From Thermoproteota archaeon (GTDB lineage Archaea > Korarchaeota > Korarchaeia > Korarchaeales > Korarchaeaceae): a DNA stretch of 64,000 nucleotides. The stretch spans positions 768,001-832,000 of the forward strand of contig JALSOH010000004.1 of assembly GCA_026986575.1 (NCBI GenBank), given 5' to 3'. The translations under genes and the position numbers were made by a program. Shown piece after piece: positions 28,428 through 54,308 of the stretch (position 1 is its first letter; each line of letters begins with the position of its first letter). Under the pieces are notes generated by a model that worked only from the letters and a program-made list of their open reading frames with translations, was not told the DNA's origin and searched no databases.

Positions 28428-29558
28428 ATGCCAAACTTCATCCCGCTGGAGACCCCGATCTACATGACGGCCACCTTCTTCAACCCGCTTCCCACTGGTG
28501 AACCCAGCATTTCAGATAGGGGCACGGACCTGAAGTACTCCAGGGAGGAGAACCCCACGGTCCGAGAACTCGAGAGGAACCTAGCTGATCTAGACGGTTT
28601 CGAGGACGGACTTGCTTTCAATAGTGGCATGGCTGCTATCTCAACTCTCCTTATGTCTAAGGCTAGGGAGGGCATCTTGATGGGTGTTGACGCTTATCCA
28701 ACCACGGTTGCACTCGCCCTTCGTCTGAGGGAGATGGGATTTCGGATTAAGCTGGTTCCCGTCAAAGAGGTAGTGGATGCCGTGTCCAATGAGTGGGGTC
28801 TCGTCTTCATCGAGACGATAACCAACCCCATATTGAGGATCCCCGACCTTCCATCTCTTTCGGACAGGTGCGGGGAGGAGGGGGTGGAGCTGGCAGTAGA
28901 TAACACATTCGCCTCTCCCGTCCTGCTGAAACCCAGTAAGTTTGCTTCCTACTCGATCCAGAGCGCCACCAAGTACTTGGCGGGCCACAATGATGTAATC
29001 GCGGGAGTCCTCACATCCGATGACGTTGGAGAGCTTTGGGAGTGGAGGAGAAGGCTGGGAACCATACTAGATCCCTTCAGGGCCTTCCTTGTCCTCAGAG
29101 GTTTGCAAACGCTGGAGCTAAGGGTGAGGAGGCACTCCCAAACTGCCTTGGAGGTAGCCAAGTTCCTAGAAGGGTGCGATCTAGTGGAGGAGGTCAGGTA
29201 CCCAGGCCTGGAGTCGCACCCCGATCATCGCATCGCGAGGGAGCTCTTCCACGGGATGTACGGCGGCGTCATAACCTTCATCCCTAGGGTGGATCCGGAG
29301 AGGATGTTCAGGCACCTCAAGGTGGTGAGGCCAGCTCCCAGCTTGGGAGCGCCTGCAAGCCTGATTAGCAGGCCCCTGACTTCAGCTTCCTCCCTACCTC
29401 CCTCCTTGGTTAAAGAGCTAGGGATAAGTGGGAGGACCGTTAGGCTCTCGGTGGGTCTCGAGGATCCTCAGCTCATAATTGATGACTTGAAGAGGGCATT
29501 AGAGCTGGCCCGCGCTCCCTCTCGGGAGGGAGAGGTCCCATCCTTTATTAGTTGGTAG
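28428..29558 (+). CDS. metB: Cystathionine gamma-synthase / Cys-Met metabolism PLP enzyme
   Basis: YSREENPT, FNSGMAAI, ETITNP, DNTFASP, SATKYLAGHND, RLSVGLE. Confidence 0.88.
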   Translation: MPNFIPLETPIYMTATFFNPLPTGEPSISDRGTDLKYSREENPTVRELERNLADLDGFEDGLAFNSGMAAISTLLMSKAREGILMGVDAYPTTVALALRLREMGFRIKLVPVKEVVDAVSNEWGLVFIETITNPILRIPDLPSLSDRCGEEGVELAVDNTFASPVLLKPSKFASYSIQSATKYLAGHNDVIAGVLTSDDVGELWEWRRRLGTILDPFRAFLVLRGLQTLELRVRRHSQTALEVAKFLEGCDLVEEVRYPGLESHPDHRIARELFHGMYGGVITFIPRVDPERMFRHLKVVRPAPSLGAPASLISRPLTSASSLPPSLVKELGISGRTVRLSVGLEDPQLIIDDLKRALELARAPSREGEVPSFISW

Positions 29559-31489: not shown

Positions 31490-31570
31490 CTCGATTCATA
31501 GGAGATGAGGGAAAGATTAACCATTAATAGCCCTCTAGGTAGAATAAAAGAAGGCCGAGGAGATGGGTGG

Positions 31571-32608
31571 ATGGAGGATCCCTTAGACGAGCTCGAGGTG
31601 GAGGTGGACATAAGGCTAGTCAAGGATGGGAAAGTTATCCTTGATGGAAGACTAGCGGAACTCCTAAAGGCAGTCTCTAGGACGGGTTCCCTTCTAGCGG
31701 CCGCGAAGCTCATTGGAATTCCTTACTCTAAGGCATGGAGAGACATTAATTCGGTCGAAAGGAAGCTAGGGATAAGCATAGTAGTCCCTAGGAGGGGAGG
31801 GAAACGAGGGGGTGGGATGACACTCACACTCTACGGTGAGGAGCTGCTTTCCATGTACGAAAAGGCTGAAGAGGATATGGGAAAGCGGAGAAAACCCATT
31901 ACTGGTAAGTTTGAGAGACCGGACTTACTTGTGGCCGGGAGCCATGATCTACTGCTGGAGAGGGCCCTCAAGATGATCACCGAATACAATGTCGAGGTTC
32001 ATTGGATAGGTTCATATGGCGGCCTTCTCTCCATTCTGATGGGAGATGCCGATCTTTCAGGTATTCATCTGCTAGATCCTAGAACTGGTGAGTACAACAC
32101 CCATGTAATGCGCGAGATTTTCCCCAATGGAGGTGCAATCCTCATTAGGGGATATTATAGGGAAGTGGGATGGGCATTTAGGAAGGGCTACTCCTTCAAA
32201 GTAGAGGATCTGTTCATGGGAAAGGCCATCCTCGCTAACAGAAACAAGGGATCGGGCATGAGATTACTCCTAGACAGGTTACTCTCGAGAGAGGCATATG
32301 GAAATGGATTACCTAGAGAGTCGATAAAGGGTATCAAGGGATATAAGACCGAATATTCGGCCCACACGGAGGCCTGCCTCGCAGTTGTTGAGGGTAAGGC
32401 CGATGTAACCCTTACAGTACTCCCCGCGGCTGAGATGTATGGATTGGAATTTGAGAGCATAGGATGGGAGAGATACGACTTCATAGTGAGAGAAGGGGTT
32501 AACAGCGATATCATAGAGGATGTACTCGAAGTCATCAAGAGGGGAACTCCGCCCAGAGGCTACAGGATTCCATCGAACTTCGGCTCCCCTGTCAATTTCG
32601 TACAATAA
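31571..32608 (+). CDS. ModE-type wHTH + PBP-superfamily (molybdate/tungstate-binding) regulator
   Basis: LLKAVSRTGSLLAAAK..IPYSKAW, RGGKRGGG; GSHD, GSYGGL, GIHLLD, NRNKGSGMR, ERYDF. Confidence 0.88.
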   Translation: MEDPLDELEVEVDIRLVKDGKVILDGRLAELLKAVSRTGSLLAAAKLIGIPYSKAWRDINSVERKLGISIVVPRRGGKRGGGMTLTLYGEELLSMYEKAEEDMGKRRKPITGKFERPDLLVAGSHDLLLERALKMITEYNVEVHWIGSYGGLLSILMGDADLSGIHLLDPRTGEYNTHVMREIFPNGGAILIRGYYREVGWAFRKGYSFKVEDLFMGKAILANRNKGSGMRLLLDRLLSREAYGNGLPRESIKGIKGYKTEYSAHTEACLAVVEGKADVTLTVLPAAEMYGLEFESIGWERYDFIVREGVNSDIIEDVLEVIKRGTPPRGYRIPSNFGSPVNFVQ

Positions 32609-32626: not shown

Positions 32627-33572
32627 TCATGGAGGTAAGAACACCGTCATCACACCTGCCTCCAAGATGGTCACTCTAAGTAGGAACCCTCCGACTAGTA
32701 TGAGTGCTGATCCAATCAATGGTAAGATGCAACTTCTAGCGATGTTTTTAATGGCTCCCTCCTTGGCATACTTCGTTCTTAGATAGAACACTAGCATGAG
32801 GAAAGCTGCACCTACTATAGCCAGATCTAGATAGGCCCAGAAAGTACGTGATACTTCCCCAAAGAGCATCATATTTACCTGCAGCTGCTGCCTCGTTGGG
32901 CCCGTAAGAGTATATGTAGTAGTAAACTACAACTATCGAGAGCTCTATTGCAGTTGCTATAGCACCTCACTTGGCCATCTTGGTGCAGTGATCCCTATAC
33001 CTAGCCCTCTCCTCCTCTGGTACCCTCAATCCCTCTGCTATGTTAACTACGGCAACGAGAGCAATTCCAGTAGCTAAGGCACTGGCAACGAAGAGCGCCG
33101 GGAGCCCAGGAGAGTGCCAGAACGGAACGGCCTTTGCCACGCCCAGTAGTATGCCCGTGTAGGTCGCTACCCCCAACCCGAGTATTGAGGCTATCCATCC
33201 TAGGAGCCACATCCCTGATTCGCTTTCGGCCCAAGGAAGCCATTTGAATGGTTTGAAGAAGGCAGCCGTGTAGAGAAGCCCAAATGCTATGAAGAGCATT
33301 ATCAACACACTGCCCTTAAAGATCCAGGAATCGACCTTGAAGGAGGTTATGGTGAGGTAGAAGAGCTCTGGCTTCTCCAGATCCATTATTAAGAACAGAA
33401 CGCCAATGACAACTGAAACCAGCGATAGCACTGCCGATACTGCCGCCACGCCCTCCTCCTTCCTATAGGTGTGGAAGTAATGGGCGAAGAGCATGGAAGC
33501 ACCGCCCATTCCACCCAAAAAGAGGTAAGCAGCTATAAGCGGCCCCCAAACCTGCTGCACCAGAGGATCCAT
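32627..33572 (-). pseudogene. psrC: NrfD/PsrC membrane anchor, interrupted
   Basis: WGPLIAAYLFLGG, DLEKP, YTGILL, PFW; in-frame TGA at 32967-32969 and +1 frameshift near 32879. Confidence 0.85.
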
Positions 33573-33583
33573 ACAAACACCTC

Positions 33584-34145
33584 CTAAACTTGGATGGATC
33601 TCCTTATATAGAACACCTTGGGCTTGGTCCCTAGATCAGGTCTGAGCGGTACAGCAGTCCCTGATGCCACTAGCTTGTATACCTCGCTGTCAGGATCGTC
33701 TAGGTCGCCGAATATCCTTACATGGCCAACACAAGTCTCAACGCAGGCTGTTCCAGACCTTTAACTACCCTGTTATCGAAGCAGAAGGTGCACTTATCTA
33801 CGGATCTGATTCTATGGTCCACGTACCTCGCGTTGTACGGGCAGGCGACTATGCAGTACTTGCAGCCAATACATAGCTCGTGATTCACTAGCACGACTCC
33901 ATCCTCGTTTACATAGCTCGCGCCAGTTGGGCAGACAGAGACACAAGGGGGATTTTCGCAGTGCATGCACAGTCTAGGAATGAACATCCTAGCAACATTT
34001 GGAAATTCGCCAAAGAAGAACTCTGGAACATGAGTTCTCCTCTTCCCTTCCCTCCAAGCGGTATCATTCTCTAGGTCACAGGCGGCGATACAAGCCCCAC
34101 AACCTATACAGCTTCGGGTATCTATCACCATGCCGTATCTACCAT
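33584..34145 (-). pseudogene. psrB: PsrB/NrfC 4x[4Fe-4S] subunit, interrupted
   Basis: CIGCGACIAAC, CMHCENPPCVSVCP, CIGCKYCIVACP, KCTFC; one base missing after ATG (ATGGTAGA vs M-x-RYGMVID) and one near 33750, whose repair restores PACVETC...FGDLDDP...KPKVFY. Confidence 0.88.
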
Positions 34146-34155
34146 AAATATCACC

Positions 34156-36664
34156 TTATACTCTCTCAACCTTAACTAAGATTTCCTGAGTCAGAGCATT
34201 TGGTAACAGCTTGAATGGTTTATCAAACTGAGCCCACAATTTGTTTAAAGCCACACCCCTCACTTTCCTAGCAAAGGCAAGCTTGTTGCTCTCCTGGCCC
34301 CACCCTGACACAGTGAATATTGTATCAGGCCTAATCGCCTCAGTTACAAAGGCCACGGCCACGGTGCTATTTCCCGACTGTAAGCTGGTTAGTCTCACTA
34401 GATCGCCCTCCTCTATCCCTAACTCTTTGGCCTTTTTGGCGTTTATCCAAACTCCGAAATGCGCTTTTCTTCCTATGGAGAGTAGCAACTCGTTGTCGGA
34501 TGTGTGGGTATGACTCGTTATTGGACTCCTGCCGTAAGTTAGGTAGAAGACATCGCCTCCGGCCCTATTGTGAACTCTTGGGGGTACCCACTCAGGTAAC
34601 GGGCTCCATATAGGGTCTTTACCAGCCTTAGCGGTTATGGCAGCTAGCTTGAAGCTGTATATCTCGACCTTCCCTGAGGGGATGTTCAAAGGCTTCTTAT
34701 AAGGCATAGTACCCACCAATTTCTCCCTAGGTACCTTAACTACGACTCCTTTGCTCTCTAGGTCGCTCAGTGAAATGCCCTTCGCCTCGGCAAGGACCTT
34801 TCTGAGTCCAGCAATGCCTTCACTCTCATAACCCTCCATAAGCTTCTTGTAATCCTTGAATCCCATTATGGCGGCGACAGCCTTGAAGTAGGCCTCCCTC
34901 ATACCCAACTTGTCTGCTATGCCCACTAGAATGTCGATCATTGGTCTACTATCATAGAGGGGCTCAACAGCCTTGTATGCAGTGTACACAGCCGCATCCG
35001 GAGTGAAGCCAATTCCGAATAGTGGATCGTCCCTCTCTAGGTAGGTGGTATCAGGCAGTATGACATCCGCATACATGGCTGTGTCCGTGGGCATGTTGTC
35101 AATTACAATGACGTCTTCTAGCTTGAGGAATATTTCCTTGACCTTCTTATCATCGGGCAGTGTTCTGACCCAATTACCTCCACCCAAGAGCAGCGACTTT
35201 ATGGGATAGGGATCTCCATGTACAACTGCATCATATAATGCGAGCACGTTTGCTTGTGCGTTGTTCACGATTATACCCTTCTTCTTGGACCATTGAACAT
35301 CAAATCTTGCATCTGGAAGCGGTTTCGACTTTACAGATCTACCAGCTGCGTTGAATACTAATCCACCTGGCTTATCGATGTTACCGACCAGCGCATTTAA
35401 GATAGCAACCATCCTCCAAGTCTGGACCGAGTTTTCGTACTTGGGGTCATGCCACCCCGGATCAATGACGGATGGCCTGTAAGTCCCAAACTCAACGGCA
35501 ACCTTCTCAATGAGATCAGCGGGAATGTCGCATATCTTGGCAGCCCAATCTGGTGAGTAGCTCTCCAGTTTCTCCATCATAACTTGGAACACTGGCTTTG
35601 CTTTGACTGAGGAACCGTCCTCTAGAACCAATGTCGAACTCGCCAGTTAGAGCCGGATCGGCCGCGCTGTCATGAGGTGAGACCCTATCCTGCTGGGCAT
35701 CGTAGACCAAGTATCTCTTCTTACCTGTATTCTCATCGGTCCATACCTTCACCGGTGTTCCAGTATTGGTGTCTAGTAGCATCGGGGCATTAGTGTACTT
35801 CTTCAGGAAGTAGTCGTCGTAAAGCCCCCTCTTTATCAGTACATGCCCTATCGCCAAGAGGAATGCCAAATCTGTCCCGGGTTTCAATGGGACCAATATA
35901 TCAGCAATGGCAGCACTCTCACTCAGTCTTGGATCCAGTACCACGATCTTCGCTCCTCTCTTCTTAGCCAAGGCTAACGTTGTAGCTTAGGGAACTCCCA
36001 AACTGCCCGCCAGGTTTCTCCTCAGTAGGATTATGTATCTGGCATTCTGGTGATCCGCCCTTATATGCGGGTGGCCTCCAGCGCCTATAGTTACCGTCCA
36101 AGCGAAGGCCTTTGGGAAGAAGCACATGGATGGTGGGCTCCCTAGGCCATTGGGAGAACCTATCATCTTCCCAATCCCGACTACGAAGGGCTTACACAGG
36201 GCGCAAGGAAGCCAGCCACCTCCACAGGCGAATGTTTTCGGATCCTCTTCCTTTCTCTTCTTCAGGATGTTGGCCACGTATTCGAGGGCTTCGTTCCAGC
36301 TTACCTCTTCGAATCCCTCCCAGCTGCCTCTCTTTCCCTTATCGGTTCTTATCATGGGAGACTTTATTCTATGGGGATTGTACAACCTCTCTATCCCTGA
36401 CTGGCCTCTGGCGCATATCTTGCCCAGGCTGTGGGGATCGTTTGGATTCCCATAGATCTTGACCGCTCTGCCATCGACGACCTTGACCTTTATAGCGCAG
36501 CGGTTTACACACATCGTGCAGATGGAGTGGACATATCTCTCCTCCCTGCTTTGGGTAGCGGCTTTCAACGCCCTGAATGCATACTCAGTAGTCCCGTAAA
36601 CTGAAGCTAGTGCTCCAGTTACCGCTGCTAACTTTAGGAATTCCCTCCTACTAATTGGTATCAT
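34156..36664 (-). pseudogene. psrA: PsrA/PhsA-type Tat-exported molybdopterin oxidoreductase, interrupted
   Basis: Tat SRREFLK, CTMCVNRC..C, Cys ligand region PPSMCF, DVILPDTTYLER; in-frame TAA at 35987-35989 and +1 frameshift near 35630. Confidence 0.88.
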
Positions 36665-36731
36665 GTGCCTCACCTGGGGAAGCCCCATAAGGTACCACTA
36701 TGAAATTTTTAAAAATTTACAAATATTCATA

Positions 36732-36750
36732 TGTTATTCTGGCTATGACA
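36732..36750. promoter_or_regulatory. Imperfect palindrome TGTTAT-N7-ATGACA upstream of the psrA TATA box
   Basis: One mismatch; candidate site for the ModE-like regulator (inference). Confidence 0.3.
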
Positions 36751-36868
36751 ACGCTTTATTTGACGCATTATCCTGTATGGAGAATAATAAAATTGCATTA
36801 TGCTGCTATAGATAAACGATTAAAAATAAGGATATAACAATACTTTTTTAAAAAGAAGGGGAGGGAAA

Positions 36869-37303
36869 TCACTCGCCACACTCGGAAGCGCAGCTTCCTA
36901 TAGCTTTGAGCGAATTGAATACTATTGCCAGCCCTCTCTGAATATCGGGATCCCTCAGCCTACTCAGCATACCAGTTAATGTCACCCTGTCCTCCTTTTC
37001 AACGGCTTCCGCAATCTTCTCTAGGCATTCAGGGGCTCCCAGAAATGAAGCTGACCCCATCAGTTCCGCTATAGCCCTCACAGTCTCCTCCTTGAGGAAC
37101 CCTCTCTGGAGTGCCACTAGGGAGAACAGTACTCCATACAGGTCATCGAGCATACCTGCCTCGGAGAACAACTCCAACTTACTCAGCAGCGCATCCATCC
37201 TATCTAGGTATTTTTCCAACTTATCCGCATTATCAAGCAGCTTCTCCAGCTTCTTTACCTTATCTGGATCGGATAGTATCTCACTCAGCTTGTCCTCAGC
37301 CAT
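36869..37303 (-). CDS. DUF1641 protein
   Basis: C-terminal GMLSRLRDPDIQRGL; directly downstream of sqr. Confidence 0.85.
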   Translation of the reverse strand: MAEDKLSEILSDPDKVKKLEKLLDNADKLEKYLDRMDALLSKLELFSEAGMLDDLYGVLFSLVALQRGFLKEETVRAIAELMGSASFLGAPECLEKIAEAVEKEDRVTLTGMLSRLRDPDIQRGLAIVFNSLKAIGSCASECGE

Positions 37304-37315
37304 AATCAACACCTC

Positions 37316-38455
37316 CTAGATCATCCCGCTCAATATGCACCTCCAATACATCTTGTTCATAGCTAGCTTCATAGCGTGAAGCAGCCAGTTAGGTATCAAA
37401 CCGGGAGGGACGTCGTAGAAGTAGTTAGATACTTGAGCTGATGCCTTGCCCATTCCAGTCTCTATAACACAGAAGCTCTGTCCATCAAAGAGCTCCTTGG
37501 TACCCTCCCCAGTTATCTCAACTGCTAAGTTGTTAGCCAGTGTGGCGGCTTGGAAGTGCGCTATGACACCGGTCTTGGGTGTCGGAAGTGCAGTGGCGTC
37601 TCCTACTGCGAAGGCATCATCGTATCCCTCTACATTAAGGAAATACTTGTCAACGGGGATCCAACCCTCATCATCGCCTATCCCAGAATCCCTAACTACC
37701 TTTGCGCCTTGCTGGGGAGGTGTGAGTATCAATAGGTCGTATTCGAGTGAATCTCCTTCGAGTGAGTTGACCACCTTCTTCTCAGGATCTACCGTATCGA
37801 CAGAGAAGAATGTTATCACATCAATGCCCCTCTTCTTCATCTCGTCCTCTATTACCTTATTGAGGAGGTGTGGCGCATAAGCCCTGTCTATTGGGGAGAC
37901 ATACTTAATCTCTATCTTATCTCTCACGCCCCTCCTTCTGAATATCTCCTCAGCTAAGAACACTATCTCCAGAGGAGCTACGGGGCACTTGTAAAGCAAG
38001 CCACCTATTCCAACGATAACCTTGCCCTCCTTTATTGAGAAGAGCTTCTTCCTGAGCTTCATAGCTGCATCGTAGTTCCAGAAGTGATCAACGCCTTCAG
38101 TAAATCCGGGTATCTCATCCGGATTTAGGCTCGAACCAGTGGCGATCACCAAGTAGTCATAAGTTTTCTTTGTTCCATCGGATATCTCAACACTTCTATT
38201 GTCTAAATCTATTTTCTTAGCCTCCCCTTTAGTGAATTTCACTCCTTTCCTGAAAAGTTTAGGTCTTCTTCTGGAAATATCCTCCTTTTCCGCTTCCCCC
38301 GTAGCGACGAAAAGGAATCCTGGTTGGTACCAGTGAATATCGCTCTTGTCCACGACTTCTACCTCAACTTGGTCGGGGGATAGCTTCTTCACCAGCCTAT
38401 TTGCAAGAATAGTACCCCCATCTCCTCCGCCTAGAATCAGCACTTTCTTGGCCAT
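37316..38455 (-). CDS. sqr: Sulfide:quinone oxidoreductase-family flavoprotein
   Basis: LILGGGDGG, HWYQPG, YDYLVIATG, YKCPVAPLE, GDAT..PKTG, FCVIETG. Confidence 0.85.
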   Translation of the reverse strand: MAKKVLILGGGDGGTILANRLVKKLSPDQVEVEVVDKSDIHWYQPGFLFVATGEAEKEDISRRRPKLFRKGVKFTKGEAKKIDLDNRSVEISDGTKKTYDYLVIATGSSLNPDEIPGFTEGVDHFWNYDAAMKLRKKLFSIKEGKVIVGIGGLLYKCPVAPLEIVFLAEEIFRRRGVRDKIEIKYVSPIDRAYAPHLLNKVIEDEMKKRGIDVITFFSVDTVDPEKKVVNSLEGDSLEYDLLILTPPQQGAKVVRDSGIGDDEGWIPVDKYFLNVEGYDDAFAVGDATALPTPKTGVIAHFQAATLANNLAVEITGEGTKELFDGQSFCVIETGMGKASAQVSNYFYDVPPGLIPNWLLHAMKLAMNKMYWRCILSGMI

Positions 38456-38605
38456 CGCTAACACCCATATATTCCCATCTGAGGAACTTCTGCTTCCCTC
38501 TAGTGTATAATTAAAATCTTCTTGAATGAACGTATAAACATAAGAAACTACAATAAAATTAGGGATGAATCCAGTGAATGAAAAAGTAGTGGTTGATGTG
38601 TGGGG

Positions 38606-38848
38606 TCATCTTGCAGTTACTTTTATTAGTGCCCTGATGACCCCACCCTCTTCCGTCAAGCTAAGGAGCTCATTGCCAGTTCTCTTGACCCAAGCCTCCA
38701 CATCCGCCTTGAAGCCCGCATCAGTAGCGAGTACCTCTATTATATCCCCATTCTTGGCCTTCCTGTATGCTTTGATTAGACTCGTGAGGGGTCCGGGGCA
38801 GGCAACACCCCTGGCATCAACGGTTACAGTCGGCTGAACATCTGACAT
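38606..38848 (-). CDS. tusA: TusA sulfur carrier
   Basis: VDARGVACPGP, EVLATDAG. Confidence 0.95.
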   Translation of the reverse strand: MSDVQPTVTVDARGVACPGPLTSLIKAYRKAKNGDIIEVLATDAGFKADVEAWVKRTGNELLSLTEEGGVIRALIKVTAR

Positions 38849-38857
38849 ACCGATCAC

Positions 38858-39265
38858 CTACACGAATATTACCTCGTAGTCCGACATCTCTGCTAAAAAT
38901 GTTGCGGCCCCCACAACGTCATCTACGATTGGGTCTACATGGTCTTTGGAGAAGCCCAGAGCTTCCATAGTCATGGAGCAGACCATGATCTTCACGTCAC
39001 CCAGCTCCTTAGCATCCTTGAGCATGTCGTACCAAGAGGGAGCTTTCATCTTGGCCATGCCCTCGAACATTTTCTGTCCCCACTCCATGAACTCTTGGGG
39101 TAACTTAGGCTCAGGTTTCTCCTTCATGAAGTAGGGTGTCGCAAAGCTGGTGACGAAGATCCTTACAGGCATGTCGTAATTGGCCGCAGTCTGGGCCAAG
39201 ACACCAGCCAAAACGAGGGTATCTGCTCTACCAGAGTACAGGACGATACCTAGACCCCTGGCCAC
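38858..39265 (-). CDS. dsrE: DsrE/DrsH-like sulfur-relay protein
   Basis: WYDMLKDAKELGDVKIMVCSMTM, DDVVGAATFL; GTG start after GGTGA. Confidence 0.88.
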   Translation of the reverse strand: MARGLGIVLYSGRADTLVLAGVLAQTAANYDMPVRIFVTSFATPYFMKEKPEPKLPQEFMEWGQKMFEGMAKMKAPSWYDMLKDAKELGDVKIMVCSMTMEALGFSKDHVDPIVDDVVGAATFLAEMSDYEVIFV

Positions 39266-39305
39266 TAAGATCACCGCCTCAAGGCTTCTCGTCAACAATT
39301 TTAAG

Positions 39306-39324
39306 TTTGCGGTGGATCCGCAAA
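39306..39324. promoter_or_regulatory. Perfect inverted repeat TTTGCGG-N5-CCGCAAA
   Basis: Abuts the dsrE TATA box in the divergent dsrE/CCG intergenic region. Confidence 0.55.
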
Positions 39325-39446
39325 TATTTGTGATCTAATCTATGGTCACCAGTTGGCCGAATCGCATGCCATCTAGATTATTGGAATCTTTGGGTTGGGA
39401 TGAAAAAGGAAATATTAAACACGTAAGAGATGTCCTCTGATGGAGA

Positions 39447-40403
39447 ATGGATCTAAAGGCAGTTAAATCTCTACTGGAGGAGAATGCTACGAGGACTTGG
39501 AACCCTCTGGGAGTGAGGGAATCCTACTGTAGTAAATGGGCCGAGGGACTGAATCTACCTAAAAAGGGAGATACTCTACTATACACTGGATGCCTCTATC
39601 AGATGATCCCCTATATCCAAACGTTCTCGGGCCTACTCAAGAGGCTCGAGGGGTTGGGTCCCTTCATATCCAATCTAGCGCTGACTATGGGAAGGCTCCT
39701 CAACTCTTTAGGGGTAAACATCACCTCAATAATGGGAATAGTCACATCCAGGGGAGAGAGGGAGAGGTATTTCTCCATCCTAAGGAGGATAGCAAATGCC
39801 CTAAAGACTGCTGGAGTTGACTTCGCCTATATGAAGGAGGAACCCTATAATGGAGTCCTCTATCACGATCTAGGGATGGACGAACTATTCAGGGAGCATG
39901 TCGTTAGATTGGCCAAGAAGATAAGGGAGACAGGTGCGAAGAAGGTGATCACGGTAGATCCCCATACCACCTACATGCTGAACTACCTGATCAAGGAGTT
40001 CGTGGATGACTTCGATGTCGAGGTTGTCCACTACATGGATGTACTGTTGGAGAGGGGATACACCCCGAAGGTCAGGGGGCCCAAGGAAGTGGTGATACAC
40101 GACCCCTGCTACTTGGCTAGGTGGAACGGAGTGATAGATCAGCCCCGCGCCCTGCTTACCAAGGCTGGTGTCAGGGTGAGGGAGCCGGAATTCTCGAGGA
40201 AGTTCACGGGCTGTTGTGGTGGTCCAATAGAATCCCTCTTCCCCTCACTGTCATCGAAGCTGGCTAGGAAGAGAATGGAGGAACTGAAGGCGAGCGGATC
40301 CCCCTGTTTCACTGTAATGTGCCCGATATGCCTCACCAACTTCCAGAGGGAGGCTAGGGAACTCGGGGTGAGGGTTTTCGATATCATGGAGGTGATCGAA
40401 TGA
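39447..40403 (+). CDS. CCG-domain Fe-S protein (HdrB/GlpC/LutA-like)
   Basis: YTGCLYQ, VDPHT, HDPCYLAR, GCCGG, MCPIC. Confidence 0.88.
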   Translation: MDLKAVKSLLEENATRTWNPLGVRESYCSKWAEGLNLPKKGDTLLYTGCLYQMIPYIQTFSGLLKRLEGLGPFISNLALTMGRLLNSLGVNITSIMGIVTSRGERERYFSILRRIANALKTAGVDFAYMKEEPYNGVLYHDLGMDELFREHVVRLAKKIRETGAKKVITVDPHTTYMLNYLIKEFVDDFDVEVVHYMDVLLERGYTPKVRGPKEVVIHDPCYLARWNGVIDQPRALLTKAGVRVREPEFSRKFTGCCGGPIESLFPSLSSKLARKRMEELKASGSPCFTVMCPICLTNFQREARELGVRVFDIMEVIE

Positions 40404-41578
40404 CCGACCTGACGGAGGTTAGCCAGCTGCTCAACAAGGTATCCGAGGATCCTGTCCTGAGGACGGCCTTGGATAGGGCCATAGCCTCTTACTGGAACAA
40501 AAGGAAGCAGGTTATGGAGAGGTATTCGTACATAAAGGAGCTCGCCGATGAGGTGAGGAGGATAAAGGAGTGGTCCATCGATCACATGGAGGAGCTGCTC
40601 GGTAGAGCCATAGAGGCCGTGGAGGCCAAGGGCGGGAGGGCTTACGTCGCCGAGACGGCTGAGGAGGCCCGGAAGATAATAGGAAAGCTGGTGGGAACCG
40701 GCAAGGTGGTGACCAAGGCCAAGAGTATGACCACGGAGGAGCTTAAACTTAGAGAGTTCCTGATTGAGAGGGGTAATGAGGTCTACGAGACCGATCTAGG
40801 AGAGTTCCTAGTTCAGTTCCTAGGTCCCAAGCCGATGCACTTCATATCCCCCTCGATCCACCTGACGAGGGAAAAGGTGGCGGAGTTCCTCAAGGACTTC
40901 ATGGGGGTCGAGGTGGATAAGGACGATGTGGAGGGGATGGTCGCCCTCGTCAGGAAGTTCCTCAGGGATAAGTACTTCAGCGCTGACGTGGGAATAAGCG
41001 GGGCCAATGCCTTCGCCGCCGACGAGGGAGCGGTCTTCCTCATAGAGAACGAGTCGAACATCAGGTTGTCCATCTCCCTACCTCCCAAGTACATCGCTGT
41101 TGTGGGTATGGAGAAGGTGGTGCCCACGATGAGCGATGCTTGGAAGGTAGTGGAGGTGATAAGCAGGTACGGCGGCTACAAGGTAACCTCATACATCAAC
41201 ACCGTGATGGGGCCCGCTAGGAGGGGGAGAGGGGATATCGGCCCCGAGGAATACCATGTCATATTCCTAGATAATGGGAGGAGGGAGGCATCTAAGGATC
41301 CCATATTGAAGCAGACCCTCTACTGCCTCAGGTGCGGGGCCTGCCAGTATCTCTGCCCCGTCTTCGGTGTGGTGGGTGGTTACTGGGCTGGACTCGAGTC
41401 GGCCTACTCCGGCGGGATAGGTGTAATGTGGGAGTACGTGACTGGAGACAAGGAGACCGCGACGCAGCACGCGTTCGTCTGCCTCCTCTGTGGGAGGTGC
41501 ATAGAAGCCTGCCCCATGAGGATAAACCAGCCTGAAGTCCTGAGGGAAATAAGAAGGAGGCTCATGGAGAAGATTTGA
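40400..41578 (+). CDS. LUD domain + 2x[4Fe-4S] protein (LutB/LldF-like)
   Basis: KAKSMTTEE, ETDLGEF, GISGANA, ENESN, DNGR, CLRCGACQYLCP, CLLCGRCIEACP. Confidence 0.92.
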   Translation: MTDLTEVSQLLNKVSEDPVLRTALDRAIASYWNKRKQVMERYSYIKELADEVRRIKEWSIDHMEELLGRAIEAVEAKGGRAYVAETAEEARKIIGKLVGTGKVVTKAKSMTTEELKLREFLIERGNEVYETDLGEFLVQFLGPKPMHFISPSIHLTREKVAEFLKDFMGVEVDKDDVEGMVALVRKFLRDKYFSADVGISGANAFAADEGAVFLIENESNIRLSISLPPKYIAVVGMEKVVPTMSDAWKVVEVISRYGGYKVTSYINTVMGPARRGRGDIGPEEYHVIFLDNGRREASKDPILKQTLYCLRCGACQYLCPVFGVVGGYWAGLESAYSGGIGVMWEYVTGDKETATQHAFVCLLCGRCIEACPMRINQPEVLREIRRRLMEKI

Positions 41579-41603
41579 GGATTCATTTGCACCTCCCATC
41601 TTT

Positions 41604-42653
41604 TCATAAGAGTGGGCAGCTACCTTCTCCACTCACCTCGCCGCGAACCTCCCCATCCAGCCCAACTATTTCCCTCCAGAGTCTCCAAGTGTCGAAGCAG
41701 GGTAGTTTCGACACCCTGATGCAGCTGAGAGCGACCCTCATCTTACTGTCGAGGGCTGCCGACCTGCCGTCGTCGAGTAATATCACATGGAACTCCCTAG
41801 GGCCGTGGGCCCCATATGTCACCCTTTTTTCTATATCTCCCGTCTTGCTCGGACCCGCGACTATTCCAAGGAATGAGAAGTCCATCTTTCCGAACCTAGA
41901 GGCAAACTCAGTGACTAAGAAGGCATCCATATATTTGCTGACCACCTCCTCAATACCCGCCACTATGATGTGAATCTCCGGAGTCATGGTTACTAGCCTG
42001 TCGATGCCGCTATCGGGGAGGAAAGTCATCGCACCGGGATCGGCGGCCACGGCCCTGACCCCAGTTATCCCCACATCGGCTTTATAGAGGGCTTCCCTGT
42101 AGAGGGCCTCCAAGCCACCCAGAACATCTCCTTCCCCTATTCCAATCCCCATATCTTTGAGGAACCTCCTGACGGAATCGCCATCCAAATTCAAATGGGC
42201 TAGAGCGGGAGGTACCGCTGTGTCGAGCACATCATTCAATTCCCTGAGCCTCTCGCCCAGCTTGGATTCCTCGACGGCCCAGCTGAATGATTTGATGACG
42301 GTCTTACCCTCGCCCACTATATCACCAACTATTCTAGCGACCTCGTCGCCATTAGACGCCCTGTAACAGTGACCCTTGTTCTCCTCTATGTTCTCACAGG
42401 CCTCTTCAAGCAGAGAGCCATCTCTCAGTAGATCTAAGGCCCTCTCCCTTATCTTTCTGACCTCCTCCAGCATCTCCTGATCCACTTCACCGTAGCAGCA
42501 GGCCATTCTCCTGACGATGAAATCTGCCAGAGGGCCCCTAGCCCGGCCAGTGAGGGACAGGTCTATAAGATCCAAGTTAGACCTAGGTCGTTCTCCATCA
42601 AGTGCTCCGCTCAATCTAGCCAAGTCGTACAGCATTAATGAGATGCCCATCAC
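41604..42653 (-). CDS. Degenerate LUD-domain protein
   Basis: ADVGITG, HIIVAGIEEVV, GPSKTGDIEK...GAHGP, LDDGR; ferredoxin motif eroded. Confidence 0.85.
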   Translation of the reverse strand: MMGISLMLYDLARLSGALDGERPRSNLDLIDLSLTGRARGPLADFIVRRMACCYGEVDQEMLEEVRKIRERALDLLRDGSLLEEACENIEENKGHCYRASNGDEVARIVGDIVGEGKTVIKSFSWAVEESKLGERLRELNDVLDTAVPPALAHLNLDGDSVRRFLKDMGIGIGEGDVLGGLEALYREALYKADVGITGVRAVAADPGAMTFLPDSGIDRLVTMTPEIHIIVAGIEEVVSKYMDAFLVTEFASRFGKMDFSFLGIVAGPSKTGDIEKRVTYGAHGPREFHVILLDDGRSAALDSKMRVALSCIRVSKLPCFDTWRLWREIVGLDGEVRGEVSGEGSCPLL

Positions 42654-42841
42654 CCCCGACCCCCCCGGTCCATAAAAGATAGATTTTTCGAATCACCCAA
42701 CTCCTTGGGGAGAAGACAAGGCGTTCCACGGGTTGCCAAGGCATGCCAAGACATGAGCACCGGACCCGCGCTGTGAAAGGTTTCACGCTGTTCGTACCAT
42801 TTCAATACGCTTAAAGTCCAGTGACAGTCCATCCACCGTGT

Positions 42842-45055
42842 ATGACCTCGAGATTACGGAAATTTCTCATTACAATAGTTCTGGCTGCAGTGATCTTCTT
42901 GATCGTGGGATCTCCGAAGAGCCCGACGCCTCCCTCCCCCTCAGCAACCTCTAAAGGTAATACATCCGCACATCCACTGACCACGGGTTGGATGATGGGT
43001 AATTGGAAGCTTGGATCGATACCCAGCTCAGGGAAGTTCCCTAGAGCAGGAAAGATGGAGCTGGTATGGGAACCCGCCAACTGGAGTGGTCCTCCAAAGG
43101 GGAGAGACGATCTCATAAATCCACAGATAATAGATGAACTGGGAGTCAATGAGAAGATCCTCTTCGACAGGGGATTCGCCCTGATTAAATGGGGCGAGAC
43201 TGGAGATTTTTCCATCGCCTACTCTAGGCTCAAGAGGTTCCCCATCTATGTGACGGTGGACACCTTCCTCCACGCCTATCACGTGCAGTTCGATTCAATA
43301 CTGGCTGAGATAGAGGAGGACTACCTCTTCGACGATCTCTTGAACCTAACCAACCGGATGCTGGAGCATAGCAGCACGGACGTACTGAAGGTCGGAGATC
43401 CGGCTCTCATGAACTTAGCCTACTTTTCTGTCGGCAGGAAGCTCTTGGATCCGGACTTCAATCCACCGGAGGAGGTGGCTAACTTAGTGGAGGAGGAGTT
43501 GGGTCTCATCAAAAGGGGGAAAATAGGGATGAGCCCAATTTTCGGATACAGGGAGGATTACAGTCAATACAGGCCTAGAGGACACTACACCAGATCGGAG
43601 AAGCTGAAGAGGTACTTCAGGGCTATGATGTGGTATGGGAGGATGGCATTCCTCCTCAGGAAGGGGTTGGTTGATGAAGAACGATCCAGAGAGCTGACAG
43701 TTCGCGCATCACTAATCGCCGCTGACCTCTCTTCAGATAGAAAAGATTCCGATATCTGGAGCAGGATCTACACAGTTACCTCTTTTTTCGTGGGGCTCGC
43801 GGATGATTATACCCCTTACGATTACTTGGAGGCGCTCAAGTCATTGTTCGACGGTACCCTCACCTTGGAACAGCTGAACTCCCTCAGAGAGGACGGACCC
43901 ATCGGGAAACTCAGGGAAGAGCTGATGAAGAGAGGGAAACCGAGGATATACGGAGGGACTGGAGTCTGCGAGGTGAGGCCCCCCATAACAGAGGAGATGC
44001 TGGAGAAATGCTTGGCTAGATCGGCGGGCATGAGATTCATGGGGAGGAGATTCGTGCCCGACTCTTACGCCTTCCAGAGGCTGGTAGCTCCGTCAGTGGG
44101 CCTCTATACTGGCCGGGATAAGCCCTTCACCTTGGTGATAACACAGATCGGCCCAGCGAGGGGTTTCCCACGTGGACTGGATTGGTTAGCTGTTATGGGG
44201 AGTGATAGGGCCTTAGAGATAGTGAAGGAGGAGGGAGATGCGAGCTACGATGGGTACGAGGAAAGGTTGAAGGAGCTCAGGGAGGAGTTCTCCTCCGTCG
44301 ACTGGTCTAGGAATCTCTACTGGTCGTGGTTGGACACTCTCCGACTTCTAATCGAGGAGAGGGGTGAGGGATATCCACCGTACATGAGGTCCAAGGCTTG
44401 GTTGGACAGGCAGCTGCAAACAGCACTGGCATCGTGGGCTGAGCTGAGGCATGACACCATACTCTACGCCAAGCAGAGCTACACGCCGAAGCTCACTGCA
44501 GCGCCTCCTCCTGCCGAACTTGGCGCAGTGGAGCCGCTTCCCCATGTATACGGGAGGCTCGAGTCCTTGGTCAATCAGACGATAGAAGGCCTCGAGGAGA
44601 TGGGCTATCTGAGCCAAGAAGCGAGGATCAGACTTGAGATCCTCGCGCAGGCGCTCAAGACTGCTAGGGAAATTTCGATGAAGGAACTAAGTGGAGAACC
44701 GCTGAACGCGAGCGACCTCTACTTCATAGGGAATTTTGCGGATGTGATGGACTCCATCATGATGGGACTGGATGAGAGGGCAAAGAGTACGGTGCTCGTG
44801 GCTGATGTGCACACCGATCTGAACAGCGGTGAGGTGTTGGAGGAGGCTGTGGGCAAACTGGACCTGATAGTCGTCGCTTTCCCAACCCCGAACGGGACGG
44901 CTTTGATGGTGGGACCGATCCTCTCCTACTACGAGTTCAGGCACCCCATGACCGACAGGCTCACCGACGAGAAGTGGTCGGAGATGCTAGATAACCCGCC
45001 CAAGCAATTCCCTTGGCAAGAGAGGCTGTATCATGGGAGACCTGCCCTACCTTAG
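42842..45055 (+). CDS. DUF3160 family secreted/anchored protein
   Basis: N-terminal TM; DYSQYRPRGHYT, YFRAMMWYGR, LASWAELRHDTILYAKQSY, VADVHT, SYYEF. Confidence 0.9.
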   Translation: MTSRLRKFLITIVLAAVIFLIVGSPKSPTPPSPSATSKGNTSAHPLTTGWMMGNWKLGSIPSSGKFPRAGKMELVWEPANWSGPPKGRDDLINPQIIDELGVNEKILFDRGFALIKWGETGDFSIAYSRLKRFPIYVTVDTFLHAYHVQFDSILAEIEEDYLFDDLLNLTNRMLEHSSTDVLKVGDPALMNLAYFSVGRKLLDPDFNPPEEVANLVEEELGLIKRGKIGMSPIFGYREDYSQYRPRGHYTRSEKLKRYFRAMMWYGRMAFLLRKGLVDEERSRELTVRASLIAADLSSDRKDSDIWSRIYTVTSFFVGLADDYTPYDYLEALKSLFDGTLTLEQLNSLREDGPIGKLREELMKRGKPRIYGGTGVCEVRPPITEEMLEKCLARSAGMRFMGRRFVPDSYAFQRLVAPSVGLYTGRDKPFTLVITQIGPARGFPRGLDWLAVMGSDRALEIVKEEGDASYDGYEERLKELREEFSSVDWSRNLYWSWLDTLRLLIEERGEGYPPYMRSKAWLDRQLQTALASWAELRHDTILYAKQSYTPKLTAAPPPAELGAVEPLPHVYGRLESLVNQTIEGLEEMGYLSQEARIRLEILAQALKTAREISMKELSGEPLNASDLYFIGNFADVMDSIMMGLDERAKSTVLVADVHTDLNSGEVLEEAVGKLDLIVVAFPTPNGTALMVGPILSYYEFRHPMTDRLTDEKWSEMLDNPPKQFPWQERLYHGRPALP

Positions 45056-52340: not shown

Positions 52341-52373
52341 ATGCTTAAGTCCTGTTGGAACCTCCCAACCCAG

Positions 52374-54308
52374 ATGAAAGTCGCTTGCCAGAGGGACTGC
52401 CTTGACGGCTGCGTTCTAATCTTGGAGGGCGAGGGTTCTGAGGCCTCGGTGCGGGGCGATCCCGATCATCAGGTCACTAGGGGGTTCACATGTCCTAAGG
52501 CCCTGAACTTTCCCCGCTACTATTCTAGCGGAAGGAGAGTCCTCTACCCACATATCAGGACCGTAAATGGGTTCAAGAGGGTGAGCTGGGACCAAGCTCT
52601 GGATTTAATCGCCTCCAAGCTCAAGGAGGTGGTGAGGGAACATGGCCCACAGGAGATCCTCGTATTCAACTACTCTGGCAACACGGGACTAATAAACTTC
52701 AACTATCCGCTCAGGCTTGCCTACGCCCTCAACGCCTATCGGGTGCATTACACGATATGTGACGAGGCTGGTGAACTTGCGCTGGAGCTTCACTACGGCA
52801 TGCGCTACGGGGCCTTTCCGGAAGACCTTGAAAGGGCCGAGATGGTCGTGGTGTGGGGTGCAAACCCGGCCTCGTCCAGCGTGCACGCCTATCGCATCTT
52901 GGTAGACCTGAAGGTCAGGGGAGTGCCCATCTGGGTGATCGATCCTAGAAGGACGAGAACATCTCTGCTGGGGAATTACGTCAGGATAAAACCGGGAACT
53001 GATTCCTTACTGGCTGCAGGCATCTCTTGGTATCTGATAAATGAGATCGGCGTGGACGAGGACTTCATATCGAAATACACGGTGGGCTTCGAGGAGTACT
53101 CGCGACATATCTCCAAGTACACTCCCGAACTCGTGGAGAAGGTTACCGGAGTTCCCAAGCGGATAGTAAGGGAACTGGCAGAAGAATACGCTGAGCTTAA
53201 GCCCAGCGTCACGTATATCGGTGTGGGAATGCAGAAGACCAAGTATGGAGCTGAAGCTGTCCGCATCATCTCCCTAATACCTGCGCTGGTGGGAGTTCAC
53301 AGAGGTTTCTTCTTCTGCAACTCCTCTCGGGACTTCGACACCGCTTACCTGCAGGCCAGGCATCTGGGGGAGGACAGGAGGGTCAACATGCTGGACGTTC
53401 CCTCCATGCTCTCCTCAGGTCGCTTCAAGTTCCTCTACATCTACAACTCAAATCCCGCAGTTACCCTACCTAGGTCAGACCTCTTCCGAAAGGGCATGAG
53501 GAGGGAGGACTTGTTCTCCGTAGTGCACGATGTGATGTGGACTGAAACGGCGGAGCTGGCTGATGTAGTACTCCCAGCCACTGGGATGTTCGAACAGGAG
53601 GATTTCGTCGCCAGCTGGTGGCACCCCTATCTCGCTTACTCCCCCAAGGTCTGGGAGCCACTTGGGGAAAGCAGGCCTAATTGGTGGGTTGTCCAGGAAC
53701 TGTCCAAGAAGCTTGGGATAGAGACGCCTGAATTCAAGGAGGATCCCATCCGAGCTTTCGAAGGGGCTGTGAAGGGAAGTATGATGCTCAGGGTTCCCGT
53801 TGAGGAGGTGATGAGGAGGGGTTATGTGAGGCTGGAATACCCGCCGAAGCACGAGTACCAAACCCCCTCCGGCAGGATAGAATTCTACAGCAGCACAGCG
53901 GAGAGGCTTGGCTATTCTCCCCTTCCGGTCTTAGAGTGGGAGGAGGTCGATCTCGACTACCCATACGTCCTCATCACTAGTTCGGTTCCGAAGAGGACAT
54001 CCTCGCAGGATGCCATGCCGAGGGATCTCCCGGTGAGGGATCACGTTCACATCAGTTGTGAAGATGCCAGCAAACTGGGACTGAAATCAGGGGATCTGGT
54101 CCTCATTCGCTCCCCGTGGTCCGAAGCTATCTCAACGGTCGAGATCGACGATTCCCTCCCTAGCGGAGTATTATGGGCTAGGAGATCAGCCAAATTCATC
54201 AAGGGCACGGTCAACGATCTCCTGCAGGATGAAAAGCAAGTCATAGCCGGTGGAAACTCGCTCAACAGCAGCAGGGTATCGATTGAGGTGCTGGTCAGTG
54301 GGAGTTAA
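52374..54308 (+). CDS. Stand-alone cytoplasmic molybdopterin (DMSO reductase family) oxidoreductase
   Basis: CQRDCLDGC..C, TICDEAG, WGANP, IDPRRT, DVVLPA, TPSGRIEF; no Tat signal. Confidence 0.9.
   Translation: MKVACQRDCLDGCVLILEGEGSEASVRGDPDHQVTRGFTCPKALNFPRYYSSGRRVLYPHIRTVNGFKRVSWDQALDLIASKLKEVVREHGPQEILVFNYSGNTGLINFNYPLRLAYALNAYRVHYTICDEAGELALELHYGMRYGAFPEDLERAEMVVVWGANPASSSVHAYRILVDLKVRGVPIWVIDPRRTRTSLLGNYVRIKPGTDSLLAAGISWYLINEIGVDEDFISKYTVGFEEYSRHISKYTPELVEKVTGVPKRIVRELAEEYAELKPSVTYIGVGMQKTKYGAEAVRIISLIPALVGVHRGFFFCNSSRDFDTAYLQARHLGEDRRVNMLDVPSMLSSGRFKFLYIYNSNPAVTLPRSDLFRKGMRREDLFSVVHDVMWTETAELADVVLPATGMFEQEDFVASWWHPYLAYSPKVWEPLGESRPNWWVVQELSKKLGIETPEFKEDPIRAFEGAVKGSMMLRVPVEEVMRRGYVRLEYPPKHEYQTPSGRIEFYSSTAERLGYSPLPVLEWEEVDLDYPYVLITSSVPKRTSSQDAMPRDLPVRDHVHISCEDASKLGLKSGDLVLIRSPWSEAISTVEIDDSLPSGVLWARRSAKFIKGTVNDLLQDEKQVIAGGNSLNSSRVSIEVLVSGS

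Follow-up and report, generated by a model that had tools for sequence, protein, structure and literature searches.

The locus described here raises a simple question: do two neighbouring sets of genes encode one biochemical system or two? It lies within 64,000 nucleotides of korarchaeal DNA, referred to throughout as the window (G000:C4:768001-832000). The genome is 1.91 Mb in length and 99.7% complete; the nearest homologues of the window proteins come from sources named Candidatus Korarchaeota or Korarchaeum. A dsrE-tusA-sqr-DUF1641 cluster, on the minus strand, encodes two sulfur carriers, an SQR-like flavoprotein and a DUF1641 protein. Divergent from it, on the plus strand, are genes for a CCG-domain iron-sulfur protein and a LUD-ferredoxin protein, here called LUDFer4. 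The gene for a second LUD protein, LUD2, converges on these. An earlier note on this DNA described the gene content and orientation in the same way. It also proposed that the LUD and CCG proteins form a complex acting on sulfur bound to TusA or DsrE. We favour another reading, with a probability of roughly two in three. The locus would consist of two separate modules, a sulfide:quinone cassette (module 1) and an archaeal variant of the LutABC/LdhH type (module 2), made neighbours by rearrangement in one korarchaeal lineage.

The two modules are neighbours in part of a single genus

Our phylum-scale search took in 43 genomes. Within the genus of the window, the SQR module is divergent from the CCG gene, and within ~3.5 kb of it, in 12 of 17 genomes; this count includes the window as well as three short contigs judged by coordinates only. 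The remaining five (G011, G015, G020, G027 and G030) encode TusA-SQR-DUF1641 apart from the CCG gene. In G011 it is ~520 kb away, between genes for ribosomal protein S27e and eIF2-alpha. In G020, methyltransferase and DNA ligase genes flank the same three genes at one end and a CopG-type (RHH) gene at the other. The CCG and LUDFer4 genes, with a convergent third LUD-family gene, are kept in all 13 genus loci fetched (LUD2, or a full LUD+Fer4 gene in G026). Hence, each module is conserved and module 1 is mobile relative to module 2.

We built a tree of 99 CCG proteins using a quick IQ-TREE run with SH-aLRT, dropping three rows that duplicated genus loci (L023-L025). The root is unsure because the outgroup branch is long (2.7-3.25). 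Genomes with the adjacency do not form one clade. The simplest history is one old juxtaposition, then relocations. The flanking genes locate the site. A cystathionine gamma-synthase family gene, present in the window at 28428-29558 (+), is the direct neighbour of the CCG gene in G011, G015, G027 and G030, where this upstream flank has no SQR module. It flanks the far side of the SQR module in G012 and G028. Because of these flanks, we place the SQR module in the gap between the cystathionine gamma-synthase and CCG genes.

Outside the genus the two modules were not found together. To survey SQR loci widely, we made one scan of metagenome contigs with an SQR alignment, which gave 80 loci, 74 of them non-korarchaeal. 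Many of these loci are short contigs, so all neighbour counts drawn from them are lower bounds. None of the 74 had a CCG or full LUD gene nearby. Likewise, none of 12 non-korarchaeal archaeal CCG-LUDFer4 loci had TusA or SQR within 8 kb. Other korarchaeal genera also carry CCG-LUDFer4 without TusA or SQR (L017-L022). Genera g2 and g5 have DUF1641 but no CCG relative at 37% identity or above, only a GlcF-like paralogue at ~36% or weaker matches. DUF1641 is absent from genus g7, which has CCG-LUD. Presence of the two modules is uncorrelated at genus level. Hence, the proposed action of the LUD-CCG complex on TusA- or DsrE-bound sulfur fails on synteny, which the earlier note had proposed as a check and which we find in one genus only.

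Module 1 is a known, probably sulfide-oxidising cassette

The pairings found in dsrE-tusA-sqr-DUF1641 are already published (PMC13433803 and PMC10205796), and the unit is a self-contained, known cassette, probably for sulfide oxidation. Briefly, Methylacidiphilum fumariolicum has a sulfide-induced operon encoding a type III SQR, TusA and DsrE2 (MFUM_v2_0219-0221), and the characterised type III SQRs cited alongside it are sulfide oxidisers (PMC10205796, available text). Compared with this operon and the SQR-linked scaffolds of the helical membrane plugin (HMP)/DUF1641 family in the accessible part of PMC13433803, the window has the same four families in one operon. Like known SQR systems, it keeps both catalytic Cys residues and has DUF1641 directly downstream of the flavoprotein. 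It differs in being archaeal (Korarchaeia), in its short DUF1641 protein of 147 aa and in a gene order that varies within the genus.

Among PDB sequences, human SQOR matched the window SQR best (E 4.7e-42), and the alignment takes in both Cys-containing motifs. The FAD-binding glycine motif is GGGDGG (residues 12-17). Two residues, C160 and C332, are invariant in 41 sequences and align with the Cys motifs of human SQOR; we take these to be the catalytic cysteines. The only type III model searched, NF049943, describes a selenoprotein subtype. The window protein, with Cys and not Sec, scored 363 bits against its cut-off of 525. Neighbouring genes recur widely. A DUF1641 open reading frame (ORF) was directly downstream of SQR in at least 36 of the 80 metagenome loci, and TusA with DsrE directly upstream in at least 15. 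For the 74 non-korarchaeal loci, the figures were at least 30 and at least 9, respectively. Every korarchaeal locus examined has a DUF1641 orthologue after SQR.

According to PMC13524794, HMP/DUF1641 proteins (HucM, ForE and YjlC/Ncp) form tubes that serve as membrane anchors for quinone-reducing enzymes and through which quinone passes. Pairing of SQR with HMP is stated in the accessible text of PMC13433803. Neither of these texts, in the parts available, contains an isolated or solved SQR-HMP complex. Literature matches for DUF1641 with sulfide described no SQR complex either.

We modelled four copies of DUF1641 with one SQR in three runs, with a 41-row alignment for each protein (A5 and A4). 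For the mark applied to such models, the pass counts are 116 out of 157 solved complexes and 2 out of 215 mismatched pairs. Our model passed, with 0.71, 0.71 and 0.69 in the three runs and 0.00 for the best control, on alignments of our own and with 4+1 chains that differ from the calibration of the tool. At least 91% of contacts were common to the runs, and the partner pLDDT was at least 89. In the predicted interface, the C-terminal helices of SQR (residues 343-382, with 200-204, 304-307 and 324-331) meet residues 45-96 of three DUF1641 copies. Docking on the tube by C-terminal helices parallels that reported for Ndh on YjlC in the available source text. The pass may in part be memory, because the Ndh-YjlC/Ncp structure (9pxk) has already been solved. 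We describe the DUF1641 protein of the window as a predicted tetrameric tube on which SQR docks. The earlier suggestion that it is a partner subunit of the SQR gains support from its place downstream of SQR (36 of 80 metagenome loci), from the pairing in the accessible part of PMC13433803 and from the model (0.71 against 0.00).

In module 1, the SQR would oxidise sulfide and pass the electrons to quinone. Quinone would reach the enzyme through the tetrameric DUF1641 tube, with SQR docked by its C-terminal helices. TusA and DsrE could receive the sulfane sulfur in the form of protein persulfides, destined for disposal or biosynthesis. Cytochrome bd oxidase could reoxidise the quinol. The genome has genes for this oxidase and three UbiA-family prenyltransferase genes; electrons from sulfide could therefore pass by way of quinone to the oxidase. 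The cassette would add one more archaeal flavoenzyme that reaches quinone via a protein tube and not by sitting in the membrane. So far, the SQR version of this arrangement is inferred from genomes and has not been isolated. The predicted interface at SQR residues 343-382 offers a direct test construct.

A second flavoprotein-DUF1641 pair is encoded elsewhere in the genome (G000:C9:230029-237378). The flavoprotein has 477 aa, and the pair is followed by genes for a CBS protein, cysteine desulfurase, peroxiredoxin and a Sulf_transp (YeeE-like) membrane protein. A weak TusA-like match lies near this pair.

Module 2 resembles LutABC and LdhH

Module 2 has the same kinds of domain as LutABC/LldEFG/YkgEFG (PMC3924224) and Desulfovibrio LdhH (NF045670): CCG, LUD+2x[4Fe-4S] and LUD. 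The CCG protein has one CCG domain and LutA has two. LUDFer4 lacks the DUF3390 tail of LutB, as judged by Pfam. LutC is a short LUD-only protein, whereas the LUD-only protein of the window has 349 aa and is an apparent LutB paralogue. The gene order also differs from that of LutABC, with CCG first, the third gene convergent and no lactate permease in the genome. All NCBIfam scores of the module are under their cut-offs.

LUDFer4 is collinear with E. coli YkgF (32% identity over 393 residues, E 5e-74). It matched the LutB/LldF model TIGR00273 with 358 bits (cut-off 444.8) and the LdhH model NF045670 with 349 bits (profile positions 4-386). A PDB sequence search with LUDFer4 returned ferredoxin-domain matches only, and 2g40 was the sole match of LUD2. 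These two are the only LUD genes in the 1.91-Mb genome. LUD2 is 21% identical to E. coli YkgG over 105 residues and is nearer to LutB models (TIGR00273, 107 bits). It would be a LutB-derived paralogue in the role of LutC, with the ferredoxin domain lost. In G026, the LUD-only slot holds a full LUD+Fer4 paralogue (L015 47-1228), 56% identical to LUDFer4 and 46% to LUD2. Because of this, duplication of a LutB-like gene and loss of the ferredoxin domain is the suggested origin of LUD2.

The CCG protein has only a C-terminal cysteine set, C-X34-CCG-X34-CXXC; the N-terminal half contains no Cys motif. Residues C221, C256, C257, C292 and C295 are invariant (alignment A1). Similarity to E. coli YkgE, the LutA protein, is slight (30 bits, 31% identity over 113 residues, E 3e-5). 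Hence, grouping with LutABC, a possibility raised in the earlier note, holds for one part of the module: LUDFer4 groups with LutB, and the CCG protein does not group with LutA. A model of the CCG protein (pLDDT 89) was searched with Foldseek. The ranking was Mycobacterium smegmatis EtfD (9ojn; E 7.7e-11, TM 0.69), then a LutA model (9a6l), then HdrB (5odc_B; E 7e-6). EtfD is a quinone reductase. The fold is shared with HdrB and EtfD at 14-18% sequence identity, and the window protein keeps one of the two Cys-rich cluster sites.

We suggest that module 2 is an archaeal variant of the LutABC/LdhH-type iron-sulfur complexes that oxidise 2-hydroxyacids such as lactate. LutB would be conserved, LutA replaced by a single-CCG, HdrB2-like protein and LutC by a LutB paralogue lacking ferredoxin. 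The ferredoxin clusters and the CCG cluster would carry electrons out to an acceptor. Consistent with the earlier note, which saw no flavin lactate dehydrogenase, no match to FAD_binding_4 or FMN_dh was found inside the window. Outside it, ~24 kb upstream (G000:C4:741162-743956), the gene for a 505-aa GlcD-type FAD oxidase adjoins that for a 463-aa CCG+Fer4 protein. The latter is 35% identical to the window CCG protein and is present in most genus genomes.

Relatives of the CCG protein keep two kinds of company

We scanned species genomes with the CCG alignment and kept the best 80 of 595 relatives. A TusA gene lies at a fixed distance, 5.5-5.8 kb upstream, in 47 of these 80 loci (L098, L050, L084 and 44 further within L023-L102). 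They come from many bacterial phyla and one member of the Thermoplasmata. By Pfam, the operon order in three loci is TusA, MvhD/FlpD, an HdrL-like flavoprotein of ~900 aa, an HdrA-like protein of ~580 aa and the CCG protein. Three further features occur in one of the three loci each: DsrE upstream of TusA, an HdrC-like ferredoxin before CCG and DsrE_2 after CCG. We considered type I sHdr as the identity of this context and rejected it, Pfam having given MvhD, HdrL-like, HdrA-like and HdrC-like genes. Literature on TusA, DsrE, MvhD, HdrA and HdrB did not describe the operon among the matches listed.

The HdrB-like subunit of these DsrE-TusA-MvhD-HdrL-HdrA-HdrC-HdrB(-DsrE) operons belongs to the same single-CCG family as the window protein. 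The window differs in having no MvhD, HdrA/HdrL or separate HdrC, and its CCG gene is translationally coupled to that of the LutB-like protein. No HdrA, HdrC or MvhD gene was found in the 28-50 kb stretch of the window. Similarly, sHdr/HdrB-type disulfide reductases have two CCG sites and partner with HdrA and HdrC, whereas the window protein has a single Cys motif set and neither partner.

In the tree, all 47 rows with the TusA context fall in one clade of 58 (SH-aLRT 99). The window protein is placed in a korarchaeal clade, inside an archaeal LUD-linked grade and outside the TusA-Hdr clade. This suggests a common ancestor for the CCG subunit and a sulfur-carrier-linked enzyme, but the lineage of the subunit itself goes with LUD and GlcD-type partners. 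In the archaeal loci (Desulfurococcales, Thermodiscus, Pyrodictium, Acidilobaceae and Nitrososphaerota), LUDFer4 comes next after the CCG gene. Genes for a GlcD-type FAD oxidase and an HdrC-like ferredoxin precede or flank the pair in three archaeal loci examined (L037 6208-10144, L073 521-4346 and L027 7995-11904). The Thermodiscus and Pyrodictium operons run GlcD-type FAD oxidase, HdrC-like ferredoxin, single-CCG and LutB-like; in a Desulfurococcales metagenome-assembled genome (MAG), oxidase and ferredoxin genes are convergent. The GlcD-HdrC-CCG-LutB unit looks like a combined D-/L-2-hydroxyacid oxidising unit. Pairing of CCG-LUD with a GlcD-type FAD oxidase points to 2-hydroxyacid oxidation.

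In one Thermoleophilia MAG (L084 7623-11384), an SQR relative, 36% identical to that of the window, is encoded directly downstream of the CCG gene of the TusA-Hdr operon. Among the best 80 of 595 relatives, this is the sole non-korarchaeal SQR adjoining the CCG family.

Does one system explain the locus better?

If the locus were one system, the CCG/LUD proteins would be a per- or disulfide oxidoreductase for sulfur on TusA or DsrE, or would couple 2-hydroxyacid oxidation to reduction of carrier sulfane sulfur at the CCG cluster. Several observations fit this and weigh against two separate modules. Adjacent loci have three internal orders (DsrE-TusA-SQR-DUF1641, TusA-SQR-DUF1641 and SQR-DUF1641-DsrE-TusA), so that the adjacency in 12 of 17 genomes survives reshuffling. 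Of 20 genomes in the genus, 16 have both modules and four have neither; completeness is 70% or less for three of the four and 92% for the other. Full-length identity between the window CCG protein and the HdrB-like subunit in the bacterial DsrE-TusA-Hdr-like operons is ~40-45%. On sequence comparison, the CCG protein is not a LutA orthologue. LUDFer4 scores below the LutB equivalog cut-off. The absence of a lactate permease, noted earlier for the window, extends to the entire genome, in which no PF02652 (LctP) match was found. Finally, substrates of both modules are assigned by sequence, and the caveats on the complex model, given above, count on this side too.

Set against one system are the separation of the modules in five genus genomes, by ~520 kb in G011, and the lack of any link at the 74 non-korarchaeal SQR loci and the 12 non-korarchaeal CCG-LUD loci. 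The same direction is indicated by the tree, in which the window CCG protein belongs to the archaeal LUD-linked grade and not to the TusA-Hdr clade, and by the pairing of relatives of this protein with GlcD-type FAD oxidases. The protein also has a single CCG cluster site, whereas HdrB uses two CCG clusters for disulfide cleavage. We consider one system unlikely. The linked system of the earlier note keeps a slim chance on account of the bacterial relatives of the CCG protein, the CCG subunit that is not LutA and the missing lactate permease. At similarly long odds, an archaeal CCG-LutB-like complex would oxidise 2-hydroxyacids at LUD and reduce sulfane sulfur or disulfides at an HdrB2-type CCG site, the substrate in Korarchaeum being TusA/DsrE persulfide made by SQR. 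If true, persulfide chemistry of the same CCG family in the bacterial DsrE-TusA-Hdr-like operon would be a clue to the function of the archaeal complex.

We infer that the two modules are independent. The case for a new wired system is weak, and what the finding offers is a lead to the single-CCG family. In many hyperthermophilic archaea, the CCG partner of the LutB-type enzyme differs from the bacterial one, and the same family serves an unstudied, sulfur-carrier-linked, Hdr-like operon across many bacterial phyla. The identity of the substrate reduced by the single-CCG protein would bear on both the archaeal CCG/LUD and the bacterial TusA-Hdr-like systems. Literature on LUD and LutB in Korarchaeum returned no paper naming Korarchaeum among the matches listed.

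Gene map and divergent promoter region

Coordinates are collected in Table 1. The start of the LUDFer4 gene overlaps the CCG stop by 4 bases. Because orthologues of the DsrE-like protein align from residue 12-14, its real start is probably ~11-13 codons inside the ORF.

Table 1. Genes and other features of the locus, in window coordinates.
Feature	Position	Strand	Evidence
psrABC-like operon, decayed: Tat-signal Mo-bisPGD, 4Fe-4S and NrfD membrane subunits	32630..36697	-	Pfam/NCBIfam matches over several ORF pieces
DUF1641/helical-membrane-plugin protein, 147 aa	36869..37312	-	PF07849 46.5 bits (cut-off 21), residues 105-140
Type III SQR-like flavoprotein, 382 aa	37316..38464	-	NF049943 363 bits, profile positions 1-380 of 406, cut-off 525
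TusA sulfur carrier, 83 aa, Cys-Pro-Gly-Pro motif (GVACPGPL)	38606..38857	-	PF01206 76.8 bits
DsrE-like sulfur carrier, 146-aa ORF	38858..39298	-	PF13686 50.3 bits, residues 68-142
Divergent intergenic region, 148 nt, GC 0.40	39299..39446	.	Inverted repeat and A/T-rich promoter-like boxes
Single-CCG iron-sulfur protein, 318 aa	39447..40403	+	PF02754 46.2 bits, residues 215-299 only
LutB-like LUD + 2x[4Fe-4S] protein (LUDFer4), 392 aa	40400..41578	+	PF02589 142 bits and Fer4_8
LUD-only protein (LUD2), 349 aa, convergent with LUDFer4	41604..42653	-	PF02589 107 bits; TIGR00273 107 bits

The region between the divergent operons had been said to hold a perfect palindrome. Instead, we find an inverted repeat, TTTGCGG-N5-CCGCAAA (39306-39324), with 7-nt arms, a 5-nt spacer and a GGATCC core. 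By our own estimate, ~0.1 such repeat is expected by chance per 150-nt spacer. We rejected the repeat as a conserved operator. In G018, the nearest relative that shares the gene order of the window, the right arm is lost, and the repeat was in none of 12 other intergenic regions compared. Unlike the repeat, the A/T-rich box GGAAAAAGGAAATATT before the CCG gene is common to the window and G018.

A shared promoter region bears on a further explanation. Here, the modules are separate but kept together as a co-regulated, quinone-reducing island, SQR and CCG/LUD feeding one quinone pool and possibly using the same DUF1641 tube. Consistent with this, the 148-nt region is common to both operons, EtfD is the closest solved fold to the CCG protein (TM 0.69), the LdhH relative is listed in NCBIfam as a quinone-linked lactate dehydrogenase and the genome encodes cytochrome bd oxidase. 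In addition, the authors of PMC13433803 discuss the possibility that other oxidoreductases dock promiscuously on HMP tubes. However, there is no conserved operator, the repeat being lost in G018, and in 5 of 17 genomes the modules do not adjoin. We regard such an island as improbable, and prefer two separate modules brought together by rearrangement.

The adjoining psr operon has decayed

The earlier note reported a Psr operon following DUF1641. Genes of psrABC type are indeed present downstream, but they are a set of pseudogenes. The psrA gene has an in-frame TAA (35987-35989) and a frameshift within 35519-35646. A frameshift near 33749 disrupts psrB. The NrfD gene has an in-frame TGA (32967-32969) and a frameshift near 32878. 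An independent run, X2, gave contigs that match the window at every position over 34464-42650, psrA lesions included. Hence, the psrA lesions are real and an assembly error is an unlikely cause. X2 differs from the window by 1-base indels at 32878 and 33749, the sites of the NrfD and psrB frame breaks. Among genus relatives, G014 has an intact 840-aa frame, and G019 and G022 have several stops. Decay of the psr operon is recent and strain-specific. We also considered selenocysteine at the psrA break and rejected it, because the break is a TAA codon that falls outside the presumed Mo-ligand region.

Module 1 might run in reverse, as a quinol-dependent (poly)sulfide or persulfide reductase cooperating with the neighbouring Psr-type enzyme in sulfur respiration, and this would suit the abutting psrABC genes (an NrfD gene in G026), the PsrA/NrfD matches within 6 kb of SQR in 4 of 74 non-korarchaeal loci (L137, L162, L165 and L182) and, in the available text of PMC3149612, the joint rise of a DUF1641/flavoprotein pair and an NrfD protein of the sulfur reducer Ignicoccus hospitalis in co-culture, but it is very unlikely given psr pseudogenes beside an intact cassette, the oxidation of sulfide by the characterised type III SQRs in the accessible part of PMC10205796 and the oxidative route that bd oxidase provides.

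Composition and neighbouring genes

The cassette and psr genes have a GC content of 0.47-0.52 and the genome 0.53. We set GC content aside as a weak sign of transfer. Scans of the window for tRNA and Rfam families found no RNA genes. A gene for a ModE-like plus MoeA-like protein (31505-32608, +) adjoins the decayed psr operon. On the other side, after the LUD-only gene, is that for a 744-aa DUF3160 protein (42821-45055, +; 583 bits), then a GNAT acetyltransferase gene. These two genes are syntenic in the nearest genus members (G017, G019, G022 and G023), and elsewhere in the genus a JAB-domain gene is found there. A further Mo-bisPGD (Fdh-alpha-like) gene lies at 52341-54308 (+), 10 kb past the studied region.

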